Of a stretch of DNA of 64,000 bases, positions 11,505 to 60,064 are shown one piece after another. The stretch lies in the UHGV virus genome UHGV-0113858, one strand, 5' to 3'. Source of the stretch: a virus. The translations under genes and the position numbers were made by a program. The notes below the pieces were generated by a model. It had not been told where the DNA came from. It worked only from the letters and a program-made list of their open reading frames with translations, and ran no database searches. The stretch's first letter is position 1. Each line of letters starts with the position of its first letter.

Positions 11505-11620
11505 GGGACGCTACCACCATGCCCGTTCTCTTATGAACTGCTGCATGTTTCCATGCAGAGCAGACTATATCTTCACCCACTTGGGGTGTCCACCGCTTCG
11601 GGCCGCTTGGCCCTACTCCG

Positions 11621-12022
11621 TTACCGGATAGTCGTTGGGATTTTACCTCTTGCCAAATACCACTCTTCACCACTACAGTAAAGATTGTTGCAAACAGCAT
11701 GTTCTACATTAGATGCACGGCATGATAATTCTATATTTTCCCAGCAATTATTCAATGTGTTTGCATCTAGGTGGTTGACCTCTTCCTCTTCAAGAAGGTC
11801 TCTACCGACCTTTGCCGCACAAATCAACCTGTGCAACAAATAGTGTTTGCCATTTTTCAAACAGATACGCTGATAAAATTTCTTTCCCTTACCTTTGTGT
11901 AGATAGGGCTTCAACTTTCTTAGTTTTCCACGATTGCTGGAGTATATATTACCTTCGTGGTCACAAAAGTATCCGTTTGATATTGGTATTTTAGCCAAGG
12001 TACTTATCTGCTGATTGTCCAT
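11621..12022 (-). CDS. HNH endonuclease inserted inside the DNA polymerase gene
   Basis: CDHEGNIYSS...HRLICAA...VNHLDANTLNNCWENIE; strong AGGAGG SD upstream. Confidence 0.7.
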   Translation of the reverse strand: MDNQQISTLAKIPISNGYFCDHEGNIYSSNRGKLRKLKPYLHKGKGKKFYQRICLKNGKHYLLHRLICAAKVGRDLLEEEEVNHLDANTLNNCWENIELSCRASNVEHAVCNNLYCSGEEWYLARGKIPTTIR

Positions 12023-12170
12023 TTCATCCTCCTAAAAGGAGAAATCATACATAAATTTTTCAAACTGTCAAGCCCATCCTCGCGGATCACTTTGTAGTAT
12101 TTATGTCTTTAGGATTTCCCAGCAATTCAATGGATGCACCTTATAAATTACTTCATAAGGGGGCTATCAA

Positions 12171-14210
12171 TTAACCGTAGGTTACCCCTTTACCACCGTT
12201 ACGCGTTACCAGAGTACCAGAAGCTTTGGTGTATGCCTCGGCGTTTCGTGCGTGGGCATCTCCACTTTCCATGATACGGAGGTATTCACCACCATCGAAC
12301 TGATATGCACCCCATGCCGCGATCATACCTTCGAGGTTAGAACCATCGATACCGACCTGGTAATATTCATCGGTAACACCCCAGAGGCCACGCATCTCTT
12401 TACCCAATAACACCTTAGGGTCTGGTTTAGGCATGTTTGCACAGATGGTGTGCTTACAGCGCCCGGTATTGGTGATGCCGGAGAAACGAGCTGGAAGTTT
12501 TCCATCAATCGCCAAACGAGGGTGATTCAACAGCCCTGTGTCGTTTTTGTCCTCGTCAATCGGGTCGAGAACAGAGCGACGGTTACGTAATGACAGCCAC
12601 TTAACAATCTGTTTAGCCAAGTGAACATCAATAACTTCAAGGTTAGGACACAGCTTGCCAAAGTTATCCTTCAACTGTGGTGAAGTCGGCAGTTGACGAG
12701 CTTTGCGTCGGAACTTCTTGAAGATCTCCTCGTAAACACGATCAGAACCATGACGATGGTCGAACTTGTTTTCCGAGATATTGAACTTTGCGTCACTATT
12801 ATTTAAGTGCTCAAGAATCAGAGATTTATACTCGGACTCTCCAAGTTCTTCGATGTACTTACGCACCAGACCATCAACCTCCGCATCATCGCGGGTCTTT
12901 TTGAACTGGTCTTTCGTCACATCTTTAACACGCCAGAGCGTTGGTTTCCATCCCGCATCGCGGATCAGGTACTTCTTGATGTCGTCCTGGTTCGAGATCT
13001 TCATCGGAACCATCAGGTCTGGCATCTTTCCAGCACGAAGATCGGCAATTGCCTTTTCCATTAGGTCTGGTGGCAATGGGACAAGGGTATTCTCTTTCTT
13101 TATCTGGCTTCTAATGAAGTCTGGCATCGCTGCCGGGTCTTCAACACCATTCTGGATACAGTATCTTTCCCCTGCTGCACTTACATCACCGTTACCTTTA
13201 AACGCCGTCTTCGGTGGACCTTTGAATTCCAGTGCTTCACGATTAACTGGATATCCCAGCTTGTATTCTAACCAATTCCACCCGTGATGGGAAATTCTTC
13301 CTGCACCATCAAAAGGATTAGCAGGGAATTTTGGCTGTTGAGACTTCGTCATCTCTTTGAGCGGGAGTTGAGGTTCTACTTCTTCCTCAATCTCTTTCAT
13401 CATTACATCAATACGGTCTCTCAGCTTTTCAGCTTCATGCTTATTGAATGGAACACCCTGAATTTCTTGCTCAATCATCAGGTAATCAGTCAACATACGG
13501 CGGCGTAGCGCGTTCTTCCAGTTGATCTGCCGCATCCCTTCCGGTTTATCTTTGTACATGAACTGCTTGTCATCAGGCCAGCGAGCACCTGTAGATTCAT
13601 CGATCAGGGATTGCCATACTAACTCGTTGATTAAAACGTCTTCCCAGACACGATTAACGTATTCCCACAAGGGTTGGTTACGCCAGTCATCGATCTGAAC
13701 TTTCTTGTTTGCTACACGGTAGCCCCAGGCCAACAGGCCATGAGGACCTACACGATCTCGCTTCCCGGTTACCGGGTTAAGAACAGAGTCAGGGCAACCG
13801 TTAGGTAATGGACGGTCAGGATAAAGCACACGGCTCATAGAGAGGGTGTCGTAGAGATTTACCTGTGTATCCCCAATCGTCCCCATGCACTTCGGGTCTT
13901 TGAACATATCATATTCAATGCCCGATAACTTCTTCCATAGACGCAGGTCATAGCCAAAAAGGTTGTGAATCGCAATGCCGCGAGGCTCCGTTTGCAACCA
14001 AGTGTACAGCTCGTCATAAGAAAGAATCCTAAGGTTAGCCTCTGTCTTGCTACGAGCGTAAGCTACTGCGCTTTCATATTCCGGGTGGTTTGGGTCAAGG
14101 AAGAGGACCCAATTGTTAACACCAAACTCTTTCAGTAGTGTGCAGTGGTACTTTGTAACTTCATCAAGCAGCCCATCTGCTTCATTATCCCCTATAAAAA
14201 GACCTCTCAT
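12171..14210 (-). CDS. family-A DNA polymerase, N-terminal fragment (3'-5' exonuclease plus polymerase up to motif B)
   Basis: The Exo I-like FIGDNEADGL lies near the N-terminus. The fragment ends ...TRNGGKGVTYG*, just where motif B (RxxxKxxxFGxxYG) would be. The remainder is encoded at 10809..11504. Confidence 0.8.
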   Translation of the reverse strand: MRGLFIGDNEADGLLDEVTKYHCTLLKEFGVNNWVLFLDPNHPEYESAVAYARSKTEANLRILSYDELYTWLQTEPRGIAIHNLFGYDLRLWKKLSGIEYDMFKDPKCMGTIGDTQVNLYDTLSMSRVLYPDRPLPNGCPDSVLNPVTGKRDRVGPHGLLAWGYRVANKKVQIDDWRNQPLWEYVNRVWEDVLINELVWQSLIDESTGARWPDDKQFMYKDKPEGMRQINWKNALRRRMLTDYLMIEQEIQGVPFNKHEAEKLRDRIDVMMKEIEEEVEPQLPLKEMTKSQQPKFPANPFDGAGRISHHGWNWLEYKLGYPVNREALEFKGPPKTAFKGNGDVSAAGERYCIQNGVEDPAAMPDFIRSQIKKENTLVPLPPDLMEKAIADLRAGKMPDLMVPMKISNQDDIKKYLIRDAGWKPTLWRVKDVTKDQFKKTRDDAEVDGLVRKYIEELGESEYKSLILEHLNNSDAKFNISENKFDHRHGSDRVYEEIFKKFRRKARQLPTSPQLKDNFGKLCPNLEVIDVHLAKQIVKWLSLRNRRSVLDPIDEDKNDTGLLNHPRLAIDGKLPARFSGITNTGRCKHTICANMPKPDPKVLLGKEMRGLWGVTDEYYQVGIDGSNLEGMIAAWGAYQFDGGEYLRIMESGDAHARNAEAYTKASGTLVTRNGGKGVTYG

Positions 14211-31213: not shown

Positions 31214-31274
31214 GAGTATATCCTCGTTTTGTTTGATGCATAAAGCATAACAGCCCCCGGAGGGGCTGTCAATA

Positions 31275-38726: not shown

Positions 38727-39019
38727 GAATCTCTAAGAGTTTCAGTGTTTTATGCTCTTATGGGATGATATCCAATCTGAAGTTATCTTCAACGGATATC
38801 CGCATTTACCTGTACTTGAAATTCAGGTGGCAGTTCTTTCACAGCAAAGGCTCAGAGTTTTGTGAATCAACCACCACTATCTCTGAAGAGGTTGGTGTTT
38901 CTGAAAGGACTGTTCGTCGGTCTATGGAGAAATTAGAAGAGTTGGGATACCTAGAGGTAGTCAACCGACCAGGAAAAACCAGCCTGTATATCACCAAAGA
39001 TGAGGTGGCTATTAAGTAA
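38723..39019 (+). CDS. winged-helix/HTH DNA-binding protein (98 aa)
   Basis: ISEEVGVSERTVRRSMEKLEELGYLEV is a helix-turn-helix. Confidence 0.5.
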   Translation: MRISKSFSVLCSYGMISNLKLSSTDIRIYLYLKFRWQFFHSKGSEFCESTTTISEEVGVSERTVRRSMEKLEELGYLEVVNRPGKTSLYITKDEVAIK

Positions 39020-39290
39020 CCAACCCCGGACACTGGTGACCGGACACCCCGGACATGGATGACCTACGACATAATAAAGAATAAAACAATAAAGATAATA
39101 AAACATAAAACATAGATCTTTATAAAAAGATCTTGATCTATGGTTTAGTTAGTGTATAGTTAGTTTCAAGAGGAAGTGATGAATCACTTCAGTCATCCAT
39201 AAGTGGATTAGCCATAAGCTAACCCGTTTACGGGTGTTAGATGTGTGTGGAAGTGCAATGTGTTCGGAGCCACGGGCGACAGGAGCTTCT
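39020..39290. repeat. non-coding repeat-rich region (CCGGACA x3, AATAAA-type A/T repeats, 8-bp stem hairpin AGATCTTT/AAAGATCT, TAGTTAGT repeats)
   Basis: Read directly; there is no ORF, and it lies immediately downstream of the HTH gene. Confidence 0.5.
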
Positions 39291-39292
39291 AA

Positions 39293-39544
39293 ATGCGACG
39301 ATTAACTGGGGGCGGCGCGAGCCGTACTGAGATGGAAGTTATAAAACTACGAAAAACGTGGAATAACCTTGTTGGTGGAAGACGAGGTACGGTAAAAATG
39401 CATTTGGTAGCCAGCTTTATTGACCAAGGTCAACACGTTGCAACATATCGTTGGTGGTCAAGAAAATATGGCTGGCAATATGAGACCAAACCTGCATACC
39501 TTTATGCACAGACATGGCGGCTAATGGAAAAATGGAATGACTAA
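39293..39544 (+). CDS. hypothetical protein (start uncertain; possibly the internal MHLVASF after a GAGGTACGGTAAAA SD)
   Basis: ORF track. Confidence 0.35.
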   Translation: MRRLTGGGASRTEMEVIKLRKTWNNLVGGRRGTVKMHLVASFIDQGQHVATYRWWSRKYGWQYETKPAYLYAQTWRLMEKWND

Positions 39545-43248: not shown

Positions 43249-43523
43249 GATTCAAAACTGTGGGATATTTGTACGATATTTAATATCCCAAAGATATTTT
43301 AAAATTCGAAATGGTTTTCAAAATCGTTTTTGAAACGGATTTCATCTTACCTGCAAATTTTTAAATAAAGAGTTTTGGGAGTAGATTATCTCAAACCTTT
43401 GTGGAAGCTATGTCGAAAAATGATGCACAAGTGTATGATTGCTATAGGTATCTTGGCATCAAGATTGGACATTTATCTCAAATAGGCGAAAAAGATATCT
43501 CAAATTTTCAGGTAGAAAACTCT

Positions 43524-43740
43524 GGGTTCTCGATCGACTTTTCGTTTTCAAAAACGTATTTGCTCTCACTATCAAAAAATTTTTCTCTATATCAACCGGG
43601 TTCTCGATCGGTTTTTCAAAATCGAGATCGTAATTGTTTTTTCTCTAGAAAAAATTTTTCGGCCCGGTTCTCGATCGAGATCTCAATTTCCAGATCGTAT
43701 TTGTTTTCTTACGCGAAAAAATTTTTTAGGGGTATCGCTC
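43524..43740. repeat. three tandem copies of a degenerate 70-bp unit (GGTTCTCGATCG ... CGTATTTGTTTTCT ... AAAAAATTTTT)
   Basis: GGGTTCTCGATCG occurs at 43524, 43598 and 43665. Each unit carries an A6T5 tract. ATCTCAAA repeats lie upstream. Confidence 0.6.
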
Positions 43741-43787
43741 AGTATCTCACATGAAAAATCAGAAGTCAATATTTAAATTTTTTGTTG

Positions 43788-43835
43788 AATGAGAAGCATT
43801 CTTATTTAGTTATTTGAATGATAATCATTCTCATT
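43788..43835. promoter_or_regulatory. two adjacent Fur-box-like palindromes
   Basis: AATGAGAAGCATTCTTATT and AATGATAATCATTCTCATT; compare the Fur box GATAATGATAATCATTATC. Confidence 0.4.
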
Positions 43836-44065
43836 TGCTGAATGACAGGCACCCCCGGTGTTTTGTACTCCGGTTTCAATGTTCCCGCTATGTGTATAAT
43901 ATAGGATACACGGCCCCATGTTGCAAGCGTCTTTACAATTCTTTACAAATAGACTTTAGGCGAGCTACCGGCGATCCACCTTCCAACCAGGTCTCCGCGC
44001 CTGGTATGTTAGCCCCGCCTTTCCGCCGTGGGGTGGCGTCTCTTCTCCTGTCTGATAAATATAAC

Positions 44066-52959: not shown

Positions 52960-53130
52960 ATGTCAAATATCCGCTACAATATCAAAAGCACTTCAAAAAC
53001 CGGTTATGTGTCTTATGTTCGCCAGGGGTCTACAACTGCTTGGACCTTTGAAGAATGTATGAAAATTGTTACTACGCTTTCAGGTGATGATCGCTATATG
53101 GGCGTTTTATTTGAGATTGAATTAGCTTAA
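52960..53130 (+). CDS. small protein (56 aa)
   Basis: CCGAAGGTAAATAAA SD; not in the track. Confidence 0.4.
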   Translation: MSNIRYNIKSTSKTGYVSYVRQGSTTAWTFEECMKIVTTLSGDDRYMGVLFEIELA

Positions 53131-53146
53131 TTAGCAAAATAACACC

Positions 53147-53172
53147 GGGGCGCTATTGCAGCGCCCTTTTTC
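53147..53172 (+). terminator. rho-independent terminator
   Basis: GGGCGCT-ATTGC-AGCGCCC followed by TTTTTCGTCT. Confidence 0.7.
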
Positions 53173-53215
53173 GTCTGTTATTCTTCTATCTCCTTCATTA
53201 AACGAGTAACACCAA

Positions 53216-53479
53216 ATGACAAACATGATTTACACTGTAAGCAAAACAAGCCTTTTACGCGCTACCCTGCTGGCTTGCCTTATTGCTTTAGTGTCTAATA
53301 CGTGTTTTAACTCGCTGGCTTGCCTGGTAACGACTGAGACAATGGCGCAAGGTTTTAACACCATGATCGACGTTTTACAATTGACGTTTTACACTCTGAT
53401 TAAACTTAATCGCTTTAATCGTTTAGACCGTTATGATCTCCCTTTCTTGATCGCTGGCCTGCTGGCTATCGCGCTGTAA
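53216..53479 (+). CDS. small membrane protein (87 aa)
   Basis: Hydrophobic (LLRATLLACLIALVSN, LPFLIAGLLAIAL); weak SD. Confidence 0.35.
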   Translation: MTNMIYTVSKTSLLRATLLACLIALVSNTCFNSLACLVTTETMAQGFNTMIDVLQLTFYTLIKLNRFNRLDRYDLPFLIAGLLAIAL

Positions 53480-53849
53480 GTCTCCACTACTCCCCAAAAA
53501 TAATGCCGGGCAACTCCCGCTTTTGTGTTTTTATACTTTAGGTTTTATCAATCAATAATCAAAAAGTGATAGATGACTAAAACCTGCATAATCGAGATCT
53601 CCAGACGGTAACCCACTAACCAGGGTAAGAGATAAAGCCCCTCAAAATGGCACATATTGCGCTTAAAATGGTATGGCCCTACCTAACAACCCCAACAATT
53701 AATAACGCATGTTATTAACTGAATAAAACATGCATTTTTAAGCATTATGTATGCATAGTGTGAGAATCGCTATCAAATGACAACTTTTATCATCTAGCCT
53801 ATTGTGTGAACTGGTTTTATTGAGCATAAAAATAAAATCTTGTCAAATA

Positions 53850-54200
53850 AAAATCGTTCGCGTAATCGTGGGGAGTGGCGCGAGCGTAGCGAGCGACACA
53901 ATAACACGGGAGTAACTCAAATGATAATCTCCCCGTCGCTAAAGCGATTAGCAACTAAAGTTGCTAACCCGTGGAACGGGCTATTATCATTTTCGTTCGC
54001 GTTATCGTGGCTCGTAGACGCCTAAGAGCGAATGAAAATTGTTATCATTAAGATGATTACATACGTAATCATTAACAGCCTAATTTTATCACATCGCCAC
54101 GATAACACCGATCACGCCCTGCGTGATCGCTCCCGTGTTATTGTGTCGATAGATATCGATTAGCGTAAACGCTAACCCGTTTCGGGCATTGATTGTGTCG
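53850..54200. repeat. structured non-coding module: 19-bp inverted repeat plus two copies of a twin-hairpin motif
   Basis: The 19-bp inverted repeat CGACACAATAACACGGGAG lies at 53894-53912 and 54129-54147. The duplicated motif consists of two adjacent hairpins, TTAGC(AAC/G)-TAAA-(GTT/C)GCTAA then CCCGT(gga/tt)ACGGG, at about 53950-53990 and about 54158-54186. A second inverted repeat GCGTTATCGTGGC/GCCACGATAAC is also present. Confidence 0.55.
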
Positions 54201-54453
54201 GTATGTGATGATAACACATGGTTACTATATGCGATCAAATCGCATTAAATCGTGAATAATGGTTGACAAACCAGAATTATTGATAATGAAAACATGTTGT
54301 TTTTGAGCATAGTTTGCCTGAAGTGTCAATATAAATTTATCATAGGGAATAGCTATCAATCCCTTGCGTAGCAATAAAGAAAATAGTTACCTATTGTAAC
54401 TATTTCAATGCTTTAGCATTGCCGGGTATCCGGTCCGTAACGGTGTTGATGGG

Positions 54454-54614
54454 AATGATTATCATTGCGGAAATGCTCAAAGTATAGCTGTGTGTTAAAC
54501 ACAATTCTCTCTCCTTGTCAAGCTTTTATTTATAAATTTACAAAATATTTATATTTGCGGAATGATTCTCATTTCGAAATTGAATTCGAAATCGAAATAA
54601 TAATGATTCTCATT
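54454..54614. promoter_or_regulatory. cluster of Fur-box-like palindromes with CGAAAT repeats
   Basis: AATGATTATCATT at 54454; AATGATTCTCATT at 54561 and 54602; these flank TTCGAAATTGAATTCGAAATCGAAAT. Confidence 0.4.
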
Positions 54615-55209
54615 CGTCGTCTCATTCACAAAACAACCCTAAAACATGAATAATCACACATGAAACTATCACCACAGTAACAGTCACACCATGTAATGAC
54701 CTGAAGCGGCTGGCCTATGCGTCGCACTGGTAACATTGGGGCATTATTAGCTTGCTATGTGTTGTTATCTAGTGCGTATAACGTGTTTTATGTTAAATGG
54801 CGTAATTCATATAAATATAAACAAGTCAATAGCAAATCGTGCTCTAAGCTGGCAAACCATATGCTTGCTATGTATCACACACAATTATTATTAGTTTCGG
54901 CAAGTAACTATCATGTCTGAGGAGGCCCCGAGGAACCGGGAACCGGATCGACCTTGCCCATGATATTTTGTAAAGATCCGTAAAAATAGTTGACGCCCGG
55001 AGCTGTCCGTCTAGCACCTCAGACAGTGCGAATGCTCCAAAACACCCAGACAGATATTTTTCGGCAAGTGATATTTTCGGCAGGGGGCATGTTTTGATTT
55101 CCCCACGGGGGAAGGGGTGGTTATACGGGGAAAACAGGGGCCTGTTTACGGTATCGACATATCGGGGAGTCCCTTCAGATTGTGTGTTAATGAAATGAGT
55201 ACGTAGTAC

Positions 55210-55228
55210 AATGAGAATCATTCTCATT
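55210..55228. promoter_or_regulatory. Fur-box-like perfect palindrome
   Basis: AATGAGAATCATTCTCATT, 19-bp dyad. Confidence 0.4.
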
Positions 55229-55332
55229 TACAGACAACCGGGCAGGTCCGGTGATTGTTTCGTGCAGCCTCAGCACCTGTTGCTGTGTGCAGGATAACAG
55301 GGTTGCCTATTCAGGTCAACCCCTTCGTGCGG

Positions 55333-55620
55333 TCACCACTGATGAAATCTTTTGTGCTCCCATCTCGCCCGGCTGATGATACACCACATAGCCTGTTCAT
55401 CATAGAAACCAAGCGCTTTAAGCTCTTGCTTCACATCGCTCAACTGTGCGTATAAATAAAGCTTTTTACTACCTTGACGCAGGAGGATAGCTGGTACAAG
55501 TGTCTTTGCATAGTCCAACAACACCTCTATTCTCTGCCTTTTCCCTTCAGATTTCTTGCGTGGGCAATTCCTGATGTGTGCCAGTTTTGCTGGCGCTTTT
55601 ACTACTTTGTTGAAAGCCAT
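55333..55620 (-). CDS. basic hypothetical protein (95 aa)
   Basis: ORF track; AAGGAA SD. Confidence 0.5.
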   Translation of the reverse strand: MAFNKVVKAPAKLAHIRNCPRKKSEGKRQRIEVLLDYAKTLVPAILLRQGSKKLYLYAQLSDVKQELKALGFYDEQAMWCIISRARWEHKRFHQW

Positions 55621-55800
55621 AGAGGTTCCTTAAAGAATGGTTGTGATGATCAGACATTGTTGTGTGGTTCTCATCATTGCATGGGTGGCCTGGCCCGTTG
55701 GAGGGTCGTTATTGTCATCATCGTCATCTACGAATAAGGTAAGGACCACCACCACGATGGCAACAATCCCCAACACCCAAAGAACTATAAGTCCCATCAT
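55621..55800 (-). CDS. small membrane protein with acidic stretch (59 aa)
   Basis: AAGGATGA SD; product MMGLIVLWVLGIVAIVVVVLTLFVDDDDDNND; not in the track. Confidence 0.4.
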
Positions 55801-55913
55801 TCATCCTTCTTAGCCACTGGCCCAATAGATACGTACAACATCATCCCATAAGGGATAAGGATCAGGAGCACTGTAATCAGCATCCCTAGTAATAAGAAAC
55901 CCATGTCGTCCAT
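55797..55913 (-). CDS. micro membrane protein (38 aa)
   Basis: GAGGAGAATTTT SD; product MDDMGFLLLGMLITVLLILIPYG. Confidence 0.35.
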   Translation of the reverse strand: MDDMGFLLLGMLITVLLILIPYGMMLYVSIGPVAKKDE

Positions 55914-55942
55914 AAAATTCTCCTCGTGTAATTGATAGAGGG

Positions 55943-55971
55943 AGTATAATCGCCGAGCCTGTTTACGTCAA
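55943..55971 (-). promoter_or_regulatory. sigma70 promoter (minus strand)
   Basis: Minus strand: TTGACG, 17-nt spacer, TATACT. Confidence 0.5.
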
Positions 55972-55993
55972 GGTAAATTGATGCTCCACTTTA

Positions 55994-56024
55994 GATAAAA
56001 GAAAAGGAGCCTCTTCAGACTCCC
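55994..56024 (-). terminator. rho-independent terminator (minus strand)
   Basis: Minus strand: GGAGTC-TGAAGA-GGCTCC followed by TTTTCTTTTATC. Confidence 0.5.
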
Positions 56025-59820: not shown

Positions 59821-59955
59821 CGTAAGAAATCCCCTTAACATAACGCCAAGTTTTACGGCAATAGGCGAGCCACTTGGCAAGTTCGTCTTCACCAACACCA
59901 GATTTGCACAAATACCAGCCGTTGTCAACACTCACCCGCCCATAGATGCAGAAGT
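59797..59955 (-). CDS. micro-protein (52 aa)
   Basis: AAAGGAGAAATC SD then ATG, downstream of a TTGACA-16-CATAAT promoter; not in the track. Confidence 0.4.
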
Positions 59956-60035
59956 TTTTCATACGCCTCCCCATGATTTCTCCTTTGAAATTGTTTATCT
60001 TGGCATTATGACAGAAAAAGAGGTCGTGTCAACAG

Positions 60036-60064
60036 TTGATTGATACCAAATTTGTTGGTATACT
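60036..60064 (+). promoter_or_regulatory. sigma70 promoter (extended -10) in a divergent promoter region
   Basis: TTGATT, 17-nt spacer, TGgTATACT. The palindrome TCAACAGTTGA overlaps both divergent promoters. Confidence 0.55.

Follow-up and report, generated by a model that had tools for sequence, protein, structure and literature searches.

The 64,000-nt stretch of UHGV virus genome UHGV-0113858 analyzed here (the window) raises a question at positions 53480–55332: what fills the 1.85 kb between two converging gene arms, a region that the original prediction had described as gene-free and packed with dyad symmetries? Comparison with related phages indicates that this region is probably the end region of a linear chromosome, that is, a concatemer junction, as it appears in a circularly collapsed assembly. 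The argument turns on the following features.

54498–55011, unstranded: direct terminal repeat (DTR) of 514 bp, present as a single copy in the collapsed assembly and assigned by homology to mapped DTRs.

53854–54148, unstranded: nested inverted-repeat element of ~300 nt, near-invariant across two genera and showing covariation.

55190–55319, minus strand: predicted σ70 promoter and leader, with an extended −10, firing leftward to the DTR.

Sequence comparison identifies the source phage as a Mydovirus-type (rV5-like) myophage. A near-identity search with 53000–56000 matched 56 phage records, all of rV5-like myophages, with Proteus phage Mydo (Mydovirus, Vequintavirinae) closest at 91.9% identity across 94% of the query. 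None of the 56 records is identical, so the source phage is new but belongs to a genus-level group that is already known.

The assignment of 54498–55011 as the DTR is made by homology to the mapped repeats of these relatives. For phage KPP-1, read coverage is doubled (2x) over 116,316–116,829 and PhageTerm calls a 514-bp T7-type DTR (PMC9862379); this interval aligns gaplessly over its full length with 54498–55011 at 95.9%. The record of phage DP carries an annotated 514-bp repeat_region, with identical sequence at both record ends, that aligns gaplessly from first to last base with the same positions at 96.5%. The KP12 and DP records terminate at the same query position, the end of KP12 being 55011. 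Packaging or termini, one of the roles proposed originally, is therefore strongly supported. The window holds a single repeat copy, as would be expected when the assembly of a terminally redundant genome collapses into a circle, and the gene arms look convergent because both are transcribed toward physical ends that the collapsed assembly joins. The DTR itself has been published for close relatives, and its feature class is known.

The left virion end begins with AACACAATTCTCTC... and the right end closes with ...GGAGCTGTCCGTC. The interior of the repeat contains TTGTCAAG, AAATTTACAAAATATTT, GATATTTTGTAAAGATCC, and two copies of AATGATTCTCATT (54561 and 54602) around TTCGAAAT repeats; the CGAAAT/TTCGAAAT repeats that had been reported earlier are present at 54573–54600. 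With ↓ marking the cut, the left site reads TA↓AACAC at 54497/54498 and the right site CCGTC↓TAGCAC at 55011/55012. Both contexts, TA↓AACAC(A/G)ATT on the left and TGTCCGTC↓TAGCAC on the right, are invariant in Mydovirus and Seunavirus while their surroundings diverge.

More distant phages extend this observation. Gotham (Vequintavirus) has experimentally mapped terminal repeats of 459 bp (PMC7471380), annotated at both ends of its record, and FBKp34 (Stephanstirmvirinae) has a 367-bp repeat mapped at 12,982–13,347 (PMC8386662). An internal marker places the Gotham record in inverted orientation relative to the window, and boundaries were compared in matched orientation. Although the repeats themselves do not align, the window, Gotham, and FBKp34 have boundary motifs in common: ↓RACA…TTTTCTC(Y-rich)…TTGTCAAG…AAATTTACAA on the left, and GATATTTTG, ~40 nt, and CCGYC↓TRGCAC on the right. 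In both Gotham and FBKp34, 1.8–2.5 kb of noncoding DNA surrounds the DTR, between arms pointing at it. The window thus shows what a short T7-type DTR would be expected to show: end-to-end homology, conserved cut contexts, and a noncoding gap between end-directed arms.

The absence of genes from the interval was confirmed by comparing every ORF of 34–119 aa in the region with 11 relatives. All of these ORFs, the longest at 54868–55227 (minus strand), 54717–54920 (plus), and 54465–54653 (plus) included, are interrupted by frameshifts or internal stops in relatives of 90–99% identity. Substitutions within them are even across codon positions, while the flanking genes remain intact and their substitutions are biased to third positions. 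Neither Pfam nor PHROGs gave a significant match in 53480–55332. Disruption, absent codon-position bias, and the lack of a Pfam or PHROG match together rule out protein-coding genes in the gap. Annotators of related genomes have placed differing, mutually inconsistent small ORFs here, and the spurious ones in several GenBank records could be deleted. No ordinary conserved genes align to the region in relatives; the presence of such genes is what the original prediction had named as telling against it.

The nested element left of the DTR is the most highly organized part of the noncoding DNA. Its left edge is formed by the upstream repeat TCGTTCGCGTAATCGTGG (53854–53871), with anchor TGGCGCGAGCGTAGCGAGCGACA. 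The outermost helix, H1 (53894–53912/54130–54148), encloses the palindromic hairpin P (53920–53928/53983–53991), the helix H2 (54001–54011/54096–54106), which itself encloses the hairpin M (54053–54060/54065–54072), and the hairpin H3 (54110–54116/54122–54128). H1 corresponds to the perfect 19-bp inverted repeat noted originally, whose second arm lies at 54130–54148 and had been placed one position off (54129–54147); H2 corresponds to the inverted repeat GTTATCGTGGC/GCCACGATAAC, which is likewise real. The dyad richness of the whole region also exceeds expectation. We counted 20 perfect inverted repeats (≥9 nt, spacer ≤300 nt), compared with 4.8 ± 2.1 in dinucleotide shuffles (0/200 reach 20) and 3.9 ± 3.2 in equal-sized windows of the same genome (0/64), or ~4–5x the chance level.

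We aligned the element in 18 sequences from Mydovirus and Seunavirus. The strings CTTGTCAAATAAAA, TCGTTCGCGTAATCGTGG, TGGCGCGAGCGTAGCGAGCGACAC, TTCGTTCGCGTTATCGTGGCTCG, TCGCCACGATAACACCGAT, and GTGTTATTGTGTCG are near-invariant in this alignment, and RNAalifold recovers the nested H1/P/H2/M/H3 structure from it. When pairs are counted on the named structure, 97.9% of cells are paired and 9 pairs have changed on both sides (36 cells). None of 500 column shuffles reaches the observed values, and all six controls in which the structure was slid give zero such pairs. Compensated variants in H1 include GGGAG/CTCCC, GAGGG/CCCTC, GAGAG/CTCTC, and TAGGG/CCCTA, as well as CACAAT/ATTGTG versus CACTAT/ATAGTG; those in P are AATGATA/TATCATT, AATGCGA/TCGCATT, and AAACGATA/TATCGTTT; and those in H3 are GATCACG/CGTGATC, GATCAAC/GTTGATC, and GATTAGC/GCTAATC. 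A homologous element occurs in rV5-like phages, lying to the same side of their DTR at a similar distance, with the anchor TGGCGCGA…GCGACAyAATA…AGTAAC in common. Its H1 is a perfect 18-bp repeat whose 6 aligned differences from the H1 of the window (rV5/Gotham) are all compensated, and at the positions of the inner repeated unit of the window it carries another sequence, GGCAACTAT.

The pattern of change bears on the molecule in which this pairing would take place. Fold z-scores of the element are −9.4 for single-stranded DNA (plus strand), −8.5 for RNA (plus strand), and −9.2 for RNA (minus strand). Every change in the H1, P, H2, and H3 helices is a direct exchange of one Watson–Crick pair for another, and none is one-sided. 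The only G·U pair in these helices is the invariant terminal pair of H1; outside them, G·U occurs in 2 cells of hairpin M, of ~950 cells in all. No terminator was found downstream of the element, and Rfam returned no match in the region at gathering thresholds and none that was meaningful at E ≤ 5. A candidate σ70 promoter upstream of the element, TTGAGC-N17-TCAAAT, was rejected, as a 54-nt insert separates the hexamers in Mydo and Ro1 and the spacing differs in Seunavirus. Symmetric folding, the near absence of G·U pairs, and the lack of a promoter, terminator, and Rfam match speak for a constraint at the level of DNA, or of both strands, more than for a classical RNA gene. We infer that the element is cis-acting DNA that forms hairpins when single-stranded. 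A 19–20-bp stem whose arms lie 217 nt apart has no way of extruding from a duplex, so this interpretation requires the DNA to be single-stranded at some stage, for instance during replication or strand displacement.

Two further observations concern the distribution of the element. A scan of IMG/VR with its invariant strings returned mostly the same isolates. In Salmonella phage NINP13076 (MZ326168, 161 kb), positions 1090–1180 contain the 5′ half of the element, including the first of the hairpin cassettes described below, followed by an unrelated gene; the divergence precedes the 3′ arms of H2 and H1. This break is either a rearrangement or an assembly chimera, and if it is real, either that phage can do without an intact element or it has a second copy.

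Conservation extends beyond the element. Noncoding blocks are 0.7–0.94 identical across genera, compared with 0.42–0.49 for flanking genes. In a position-wise map of identity to Seunavirus, values are 0.64–0.94 at 53700–53900, 0.69–0.84 at 53980–54140, 0.70–0.91 at 54500–54660, 0.78 at 54780–54860, and 0.71 at 55260–55300, against 0.42–0.49 in the adjacent protein gene. Blocks that are kept better than neighboring genes show the pattern expected of cis-acting sites rather than of spacer. By this measure the noncoding DNA on both sides of the DTR is more constrained than the neighboring genes, and we infer that it carries cis-acting signals for end cutting, packaging, or replication.

On the right of the DTR, a predicted promoter points into the junction. 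It begins directly after the stop codon of the last gene of the minus-strand arm and consists of a −35 TTGACC (55319–55314), a 17-nt spacer ending in TGT, and a −10 TATCCT (55296–55291); its leader contains the hairpin ACCGGACCTGCCCGGT (55252–55237) and then a perfect 9-1-9 palindrome, AATGAGAATCATTCTCATT (55210–55228). The promoter and leader are kept in Mydo, GAP31, EspYZU14, KE23, and FBKp34 (Stephanstirmvirinae), and in the alignment with Seunavirus and FBKp34 the invariant columns coincide with the −35, TG, and −10. A 52-nt core is ~85% conserved in >100 Vequintavirinae records, and in rV5-like phages it lies at an internal locus. We rejected this 52-nt piece as an operator upstream of a rightward promoter, as the alignment places the promoter on the opposite strand. 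The exact leader string occurs in PVP-SE1, EspYZU14, KE23, and FBKp34 and is missing from several close Mydoviruses. The promoter is one of only 2 perfect matches to TTGAC-N15-TGNTANNNT in the 64 kb; the other perfect extended −10 match lies at 31244–31272 on the minus strand (TTGACAGCCCCTCCGGGGGCTGTTATGCT), where the spacer is a GC-rich hairpin. The promoter-hairpin-palindrome module recurs at 43.8 kb and at the matching internal locus of Gotham, in both cases firing into an iteron-like array. A promoter that would fire through a palindrome resembling the Fur box suggests regulated transcription into the junction.

How these parts might act together can be framed as a conditional scheme. In replicating concatemers the junction would hold one copy of the repeat; the terminase would have to cut at 54497/54498 and 55011/55012, and complete ends on both daughters would require duplication of the repeat. 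The element, 350–650 nt inside the right arm, would fold once its DNA is single-stranded, and the folded form could serve as a snap-back primer or hairpin, or as a protein-recognized structure or loaded dyad, for duplication or cutting of the repeat. Transcription from the promoter into the junction would open or mark the DNA, possibly gated by a palindrome-binding protein. Chung, Nardone, and Hinkle, whose paper is cited in PMC11482910, are said to have described in 1990 a hairpin end as a processing intermediate of T7 concatemers. That the element folds, either as single-stranded DNA or in a junction transcript, to duplicate or cut the junction repeat, and that this is coupled to Fur-gated, junction-directed transcription, is a tentative proposal that we hold to be somewhat improbable as a whole. 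If it is true, short-DTR myophages would have their first defined structure for packaging or end duplication.

Several points weigh against this account of the junction. The termini have been mapped in relatives, so that the DTR of this phage is placed by homology, and PhageTerm boundaries in those relatives could be a few bases off. The function of the flanking elements is read from their position, conservation, and covariation. A single-stranded phase must be assumed, duplex extrusion of H1 being impossible. Template-switch (quasipalindrome) correction can yield compensatory changes without selection for the fold; despite this caveat, the strong conservation of the element across the aligned genomes shows it to be functional. 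The promoter module is not universally fixed at this place, its exact leader being missing in some close Mydoviruses. Finally, the T7 hairpin analogy serves as a lead only.

One competing explanation starts from the palindromes, which the original prediction had called Fur-like. They exist and are overrepresented: the window has 5 sites of the 19-mer AATGAGAATCATTCTCATT family versus 0.01 expected, and the 7-1-7 form TGAKAAT-n-ATTMTCA has 10 sites versus 1.45 expected, 5 of them within the 1.85-kb region. The classical 19-bp Fur box is GATAATGATAATCATTATC, and matches of 14–15/19 to it, as a Fur operator would show, occur at 54028/54034, 54445/54451, 54599, 55207/55213, and 43814/43820. Baichoo and Helmann reportedly gave the box a 7-1-7 reading, TGATAAT-n-ATTATCA, in 2002; TGAGAAT-C-ATTCTCA agrees with TGATAAT-n-ATTATCA at 12/14 positions and the site at 43819 at 13/14. 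The phage sites thus have the same 7-1-7 dyad and symmetry center as the Fur box (12–13/14) and are clustered in regulatory noncoding DNA: just outside the left cut (54450), inside the DTR (54561 and 54598–54612), in the leader downstream of the conserved promoter (55210–55228), and as a pair at the internal locus (43790 and 43819). The motif also occurs inside the nonalignable repeat of Gotham. Unlike the Fur box, the phage consensus has a consistent symmetric T→G/A→C change, and one site shares the dyad only.

It is possible, if doubtful, that the palindromes are sites for host Fur or for a phage Fur-like repressor and that the region is mainly an iron-linked regulatory switch. A literature search found no report of Fur boxes in these phages. 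In KP12, KpS11, and Ro1 the Fur-like sequence at hairpin P is replaced by AATGCGA/TCGCATT, and in the present phage it is split by a 54-nt cassette, so that the dyad alone is conserved there. Binding by a Fur-like protein would also explain the palindromes only, and neither the DTR nor the H1/H2 element.

A replication origin, which would be compatible with the DTR, is a somewhat unlikely function for the region. Initiator iterons, an unwinding element at 54200–54800, and an activating or priming transcript from the promoter would make up such an origin. Consistent with this idea, TCGTTCGCGTWATCGTGG occurs twice in direct and once in inverted orientation, GCGAGCG occurs twice, and GC content is 0.34–0.35 across 54200–54800. 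The promoter fires into the region, and the same module fires into the iteron-like array at 43.5–43.7 kb and its Gotham counterpart. In rV5-like phages the unit at the same positions is GGCAACTAT, in four copies of alternating orientation, as would be expected of iterons coevolving with a binding protein. There are three copies of CGTWATCGTGG and an A+T-rich stretch; two of the copies, however, pair as H2, and the 43.5-kb locus has the better iteron array. No DnaA box (TTWTNCACA) occurs in 53480–55332, and the total in the window is at chance level; a lone match to the IHF consensus, at 54354, is likewise no more than chance would give. The single-base covariation of H1, P, and H3 is more readily explained by pairing than by recognition by a protein, and five variants of H1 exist among phages that are otherwise ~95% identical.

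The 43.5-kb locus looks more origin-like and may already serve that role. This gene-poor stretch (43500–43930) contains three iteron-like direct repeats of (C)GGGTTCTCGATCG plus a T-run (~43524, 43598, and 43665), with A/T tracts between them, tandem Fur-like palindromes at 43788–43806 and 43817–43835, and a promoter-like TTGCAA-N17-TATATT on the minus strand directed toward the iterons. The stretch has a homologous counterpart at an internal site in rV5-like phages (11.0–11.5 kb in Gotham), and we regard it as a better candidate for a replication origin than the terminal region.

It is less likely still that the element, and possibly the leader from 55284 to 55190, are structured noncoding RNA genes whose covariation reflects an RNA fold. 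The 9 covarying pairs, none broken in H1, P, or H3, and the RNA z-scores of −8.5 and −9.2 are what such genes would show; insertions at the apices are tolerated, much as RNA hairpin loops tolerate them, and the conserved promoter would yield a noncoding leader with a hairpin. Of the signs of a structured RNA gene, then, compensatory pairs are present, and a match to a curated family (even at E ≤ 5), a strand signature, and a promoter and terminator of its own are absent. No conserved σ70 promoter and terminator bracket the element, given the variable hexamer spacing and the 54-nt insert in Mydo and Ro1. Both strands fold equally well, there are essentially no G·U pairs or one-sided changes, and perfect, bulge-free helices of 19–20 bp and 11 bp are atypical of functional RNAs. 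Of the structured noncoding RNA proposed originally, the conserved structure thus stands, backed by covariation, and its attribution to RNA is argued against by the lack of strand asymmetry, the few G·U pairs, and the missing Rfam match, promoter, and terminator. Taken over the three roles first suggested, packaging or termini are strongly borne out, a structured element is present that is probably not RNA, and a recombination hotspot is weakly indicated.

That everything except the DTR is functionless spacer gathering repeats, cassettes, and recombination scars is highly improbable. Polymorphic cassettes and indels, homology breakpoints, inconsistent ORF calls, and an unconserved 9-bp repeat would fit it, but for the conserved blocks it is already contradicted by the conservation data, with noncoding blocks kept far better than adjacent genes, strings invariant across two genera, compensated changes spanning three genera, and a promoter kept across subfamilies.

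The remaining features of the region and its flanks are as follows.

53216–53479, plus strand: last gene of the rightward arm, forming the left flank outside the noncoding region; an annotated coding sequence in Mydo, KPP-1, KB57, and Ro1.

53505–53533, unstranded: intrinsic bidirectional terminator ending the plus-strand arm, GCCGGGCAACTCCCG(G)C followed by a T-run.

53660–53853, unstranded: conserved noncoding block A, with 0.6–0.94 identity to Seunavirus versus 0.42–0.49 for the adjacent gene.

54201–54497, unstranded: A+T-rich variable spacer left of the DTR, with a GC content of ~0.35.

55012–55209, unstranded: variable spacer right of the DTR, with TAGCAC at the cut, CACC(T)CAGACAG, GATATTTT, and TTTCGGCAAGT repeats, and homology breakpoints.

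55333–55620, minus strand: last gene of the leftward arm, forming the right flank; annotated in Mydo (CPT_Mydo_082) and KPP-1 and intact in Mydo.

The convergent layout described originally is borne out, with plus-strand genes at 44.6–53.5 kb and minus-strand genes at 55.3–59.9 kb. The gene at 53216–53479 is intact in all relatives, with substitutions by codon position of, for example, 4/1/9 and 10/6/16, and the stop codon of the minus-strand gene begins at 55333. The terminator at 53505–53533 is annotated on both strands in Mydo and in PVP-SE1, and its stem and T-run are kept across Mydovirus and Seunavirus while the loop varies. At 53505–53520 the stem is one G short of that in all relatives (GCCGGGCAACTCCCGC versus …CCCGGC), which reflects either a stem that is truly weaker or an error in sequencing a homopolymer. 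A divergent promoter-like pair at 59900–60064 (TTGACAACGG… on the minus strand, 59900–59928; TTGATTGATACC…TGGTATACT on the plus strand, 60036–60064) lies at the inner edge of the 4.6-kb leftward arm and is likely the start of an operon directed to the left end.

Within block A are the palindrome TTAATAAC-GCAT-GTTATTAA, ATGCAT repeats, a Fur-like site of the 7-1-7 form (53761–53775), and the invariant strings TTGAGCATA and CTTGTCAAATAAAA. The spacer left of the DTR contains a Fur-like site (54450–54464), the invariant AATGCTCAAA, and the palindrome TGTGTT-A-AACACA, which spans the left cut. Direct repeats bracket the right cut (54895–54975 and 55012–55085), with TTTCGGCAAGT at 54895 and 55059 and GATATTTT at 54960, 55052, and 55071; CACC(T)CAGACAG occurs at 55015 and 55043, and in Mydo, KPP-1, and DP the two CAGACAG copies have jointly become CAGATGG. 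The repeats could be bound by a protein, or could simply form one linked haplotype block. The 9-bp inverted repeat TGTCTGAGG/CCTCAGACA reported at 54915 and 55017 exists, but this phage alone has it in perfect form; the idea that it forms a structure spanning the right cut was rejected, one arm changing in relatives without compensation, and the repeat is probably due to chance. Homology with KB57, K18PH07C1, and Ro1 breaks at ~55142–55190, and these breaks, together with the absence of the exact leader from some Mydoviruses, indicate that the right side of the junction is mosaic. Homology breakpoints at ~55011 and 55142–55190 and the polymorphic hairpin cassettes weakly support the recombination hotspot that had been suggested.

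The duplicated twin-hairpin modules of the original prediction are real (~53941–53981 and 54160–54190), but they are inserted, lineage-specific cassettes and not a conserved core. A further copy lies elsewhere in the window.

53929–53982, plus strand: cassette copy 1, composed of CGCT-AAA-GCG, TTAGCAAC-TAAA-GTTGCTAA, and CCCGT-GGA-ACGGG, at the apex of hairpin P.

54149–54191, plus strand: cassette copy 2, composed of TTAGCG-TAAA-CGCTAA and CCCG-TTT-CGGG, flanked by a duplicated ATTGTGTCG (54140–54148 and 54192–54200).

39205–39236, intergenic: cassette copy 3, composed of ATTAGC-CATAA-GCTAA and CCCGT-TTA-CGGG, in the gap between a plus-strand ORF whose end is at 39019 and one whose start is at 39293.

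In the 18-sequence alignment, copy 1 occurs only in this phage and Mydo, the 16 others having 2 nt in its place. A database search adds NDO71 and the Salmonella Seunaviruses NINP13076 and SalP219, with the identical site and loop variants, for a total of 5 phages from two genera; copy 1 is absent from most others. Copy 2 is found only in the window among the aligned sequences. At the site of copy 2, KP12 carries an unrelated insert that is rich in hairpins and bounded by duplicated ATGTGAT, and rV5 has a separate 33-nt hairpin-rich insert in an apical loop of its element. As would be expected of a miniature mobile hairpin cassette, copies are scattered over the window, and presence or absence at identical sites varies between phages. 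The ends differ, copy 2 having the 9-nt flanking duplication of ATTGTGTCG and copy 1 having CCCGT/ACGGG ends and no duplication. Their absence from relatives rules out the modules as a conserved functional core; on these alignments, the cassettes are units that come and go in tolerated loops, outside the conserved machinery. Tolerance of a 54-nt insert at the center of P indicates that the stem matters there and not a contiguous protein operator. An IMG/VR scan with the short cassette pattern gave chance-level matches.

T4-type phages carry promoter-stem-loop cassettes, small mobile or recombining units in intergenic regions. The modules described here resemble them in being hairpin modules of 43–55 nt, in several intergenic copies, with presence/absence polymorphism; they differ in that no promoter was recognized in the cassette and in numbering three copies in 64 kb.

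The junction as a whole can be set beside better-known systems. It has the same 514-bp unit and boundaries as the DTRs of KPP-1 (MT438396; PMC9862379) and DP (OP296941), at ~96% identity and likewise between gene arms. Unlike in those phages, the termini here are placed by homology; the published descriptions give coordinates only, with no account of motifs at the cut sites, of the inverted-repeat element beside the DTR, or of the promoter and palindromes. As far as we searched, the cut-site motifs, the covarying element, the junction-directed promoter with its Fur-like palindromes, and the hairpin cassettes appear undescribed.

Phage T7 has promoters close to its genome ends. The resemblance to the T7 junction lies in a short exact repeat that is present once per junction and needs duplication, relatives of this phage being classed as T7-like by PhageTerm, and in an inverted-repeat element a few hundred bp inside the right arm and a promoter near the repeat that transcribes into the junction. 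Unlike T7, this is a ~145 kb myovirus with host σ70-type promoters and no sequence similarity to T7; its promoter points to the end rather than inward, and the role of the hairpin is a proposed one. The mechanism by which DTRs are generated is poorly understood, T7 included (PMC13595956). A second parallel is the iss region of phage T5, a repeat-packed, essential noncoding region within a 10-kb terminal repeat for which action via eight DnaA boxes has been proposed (bioRxiv 10.1101/866236). Both are large gene-free regions tied to a terminal repeat, with dense, ordered repeats and palindromes that are kept while genes diverge. Unlike iss, the region studied here has no DnaA box and a repeat of just 514 bp, and two-step injection is not known for these myophages. 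The PhageMaP study was judged irrelevant, its Bas63 being a Felixounavirus.

Placing the DTR at 54498–55011 fixes the true ends and orientation of the genome and explains the convergent gene desert. The cross-genus cut-site motifs, the covarying element at a fixed position, and the conserved, possibly iron-regulated promoter directed at the junction offer handles on end regeneration. These phages are therapeutic candidates against Klebsiella, E. coli, and Salmonella, and essential cis elements matter for engineering their genomes.

A few observations concern public records and the rest of the window. In Klebsiella phage records OY978784, OY978796, and others of the OY series, annotation tables seem offset from the sequence, and the labels "tail spike protein", "terminase large subunit", and "major head protein" fall on this noncoding region. 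Some ~14–18 "Campylobacter jejuni phage" records (MG0656xx) are near-identical to rV5-like Escherichia phages over these noncoding elements, and their host or organism labels look doubtful. No tRNA was found in the window, and a tRNA/tmRNA reading of the region gave no candidate. The sole Rfam match in the window at gathering thresholds, distant from 53480–55332, is a group I catalytic intron at 11541–12182 on the minus strand (RF00028, 66.2 bits, E = 1.4e-14), which presumably sits inside a phage gene.

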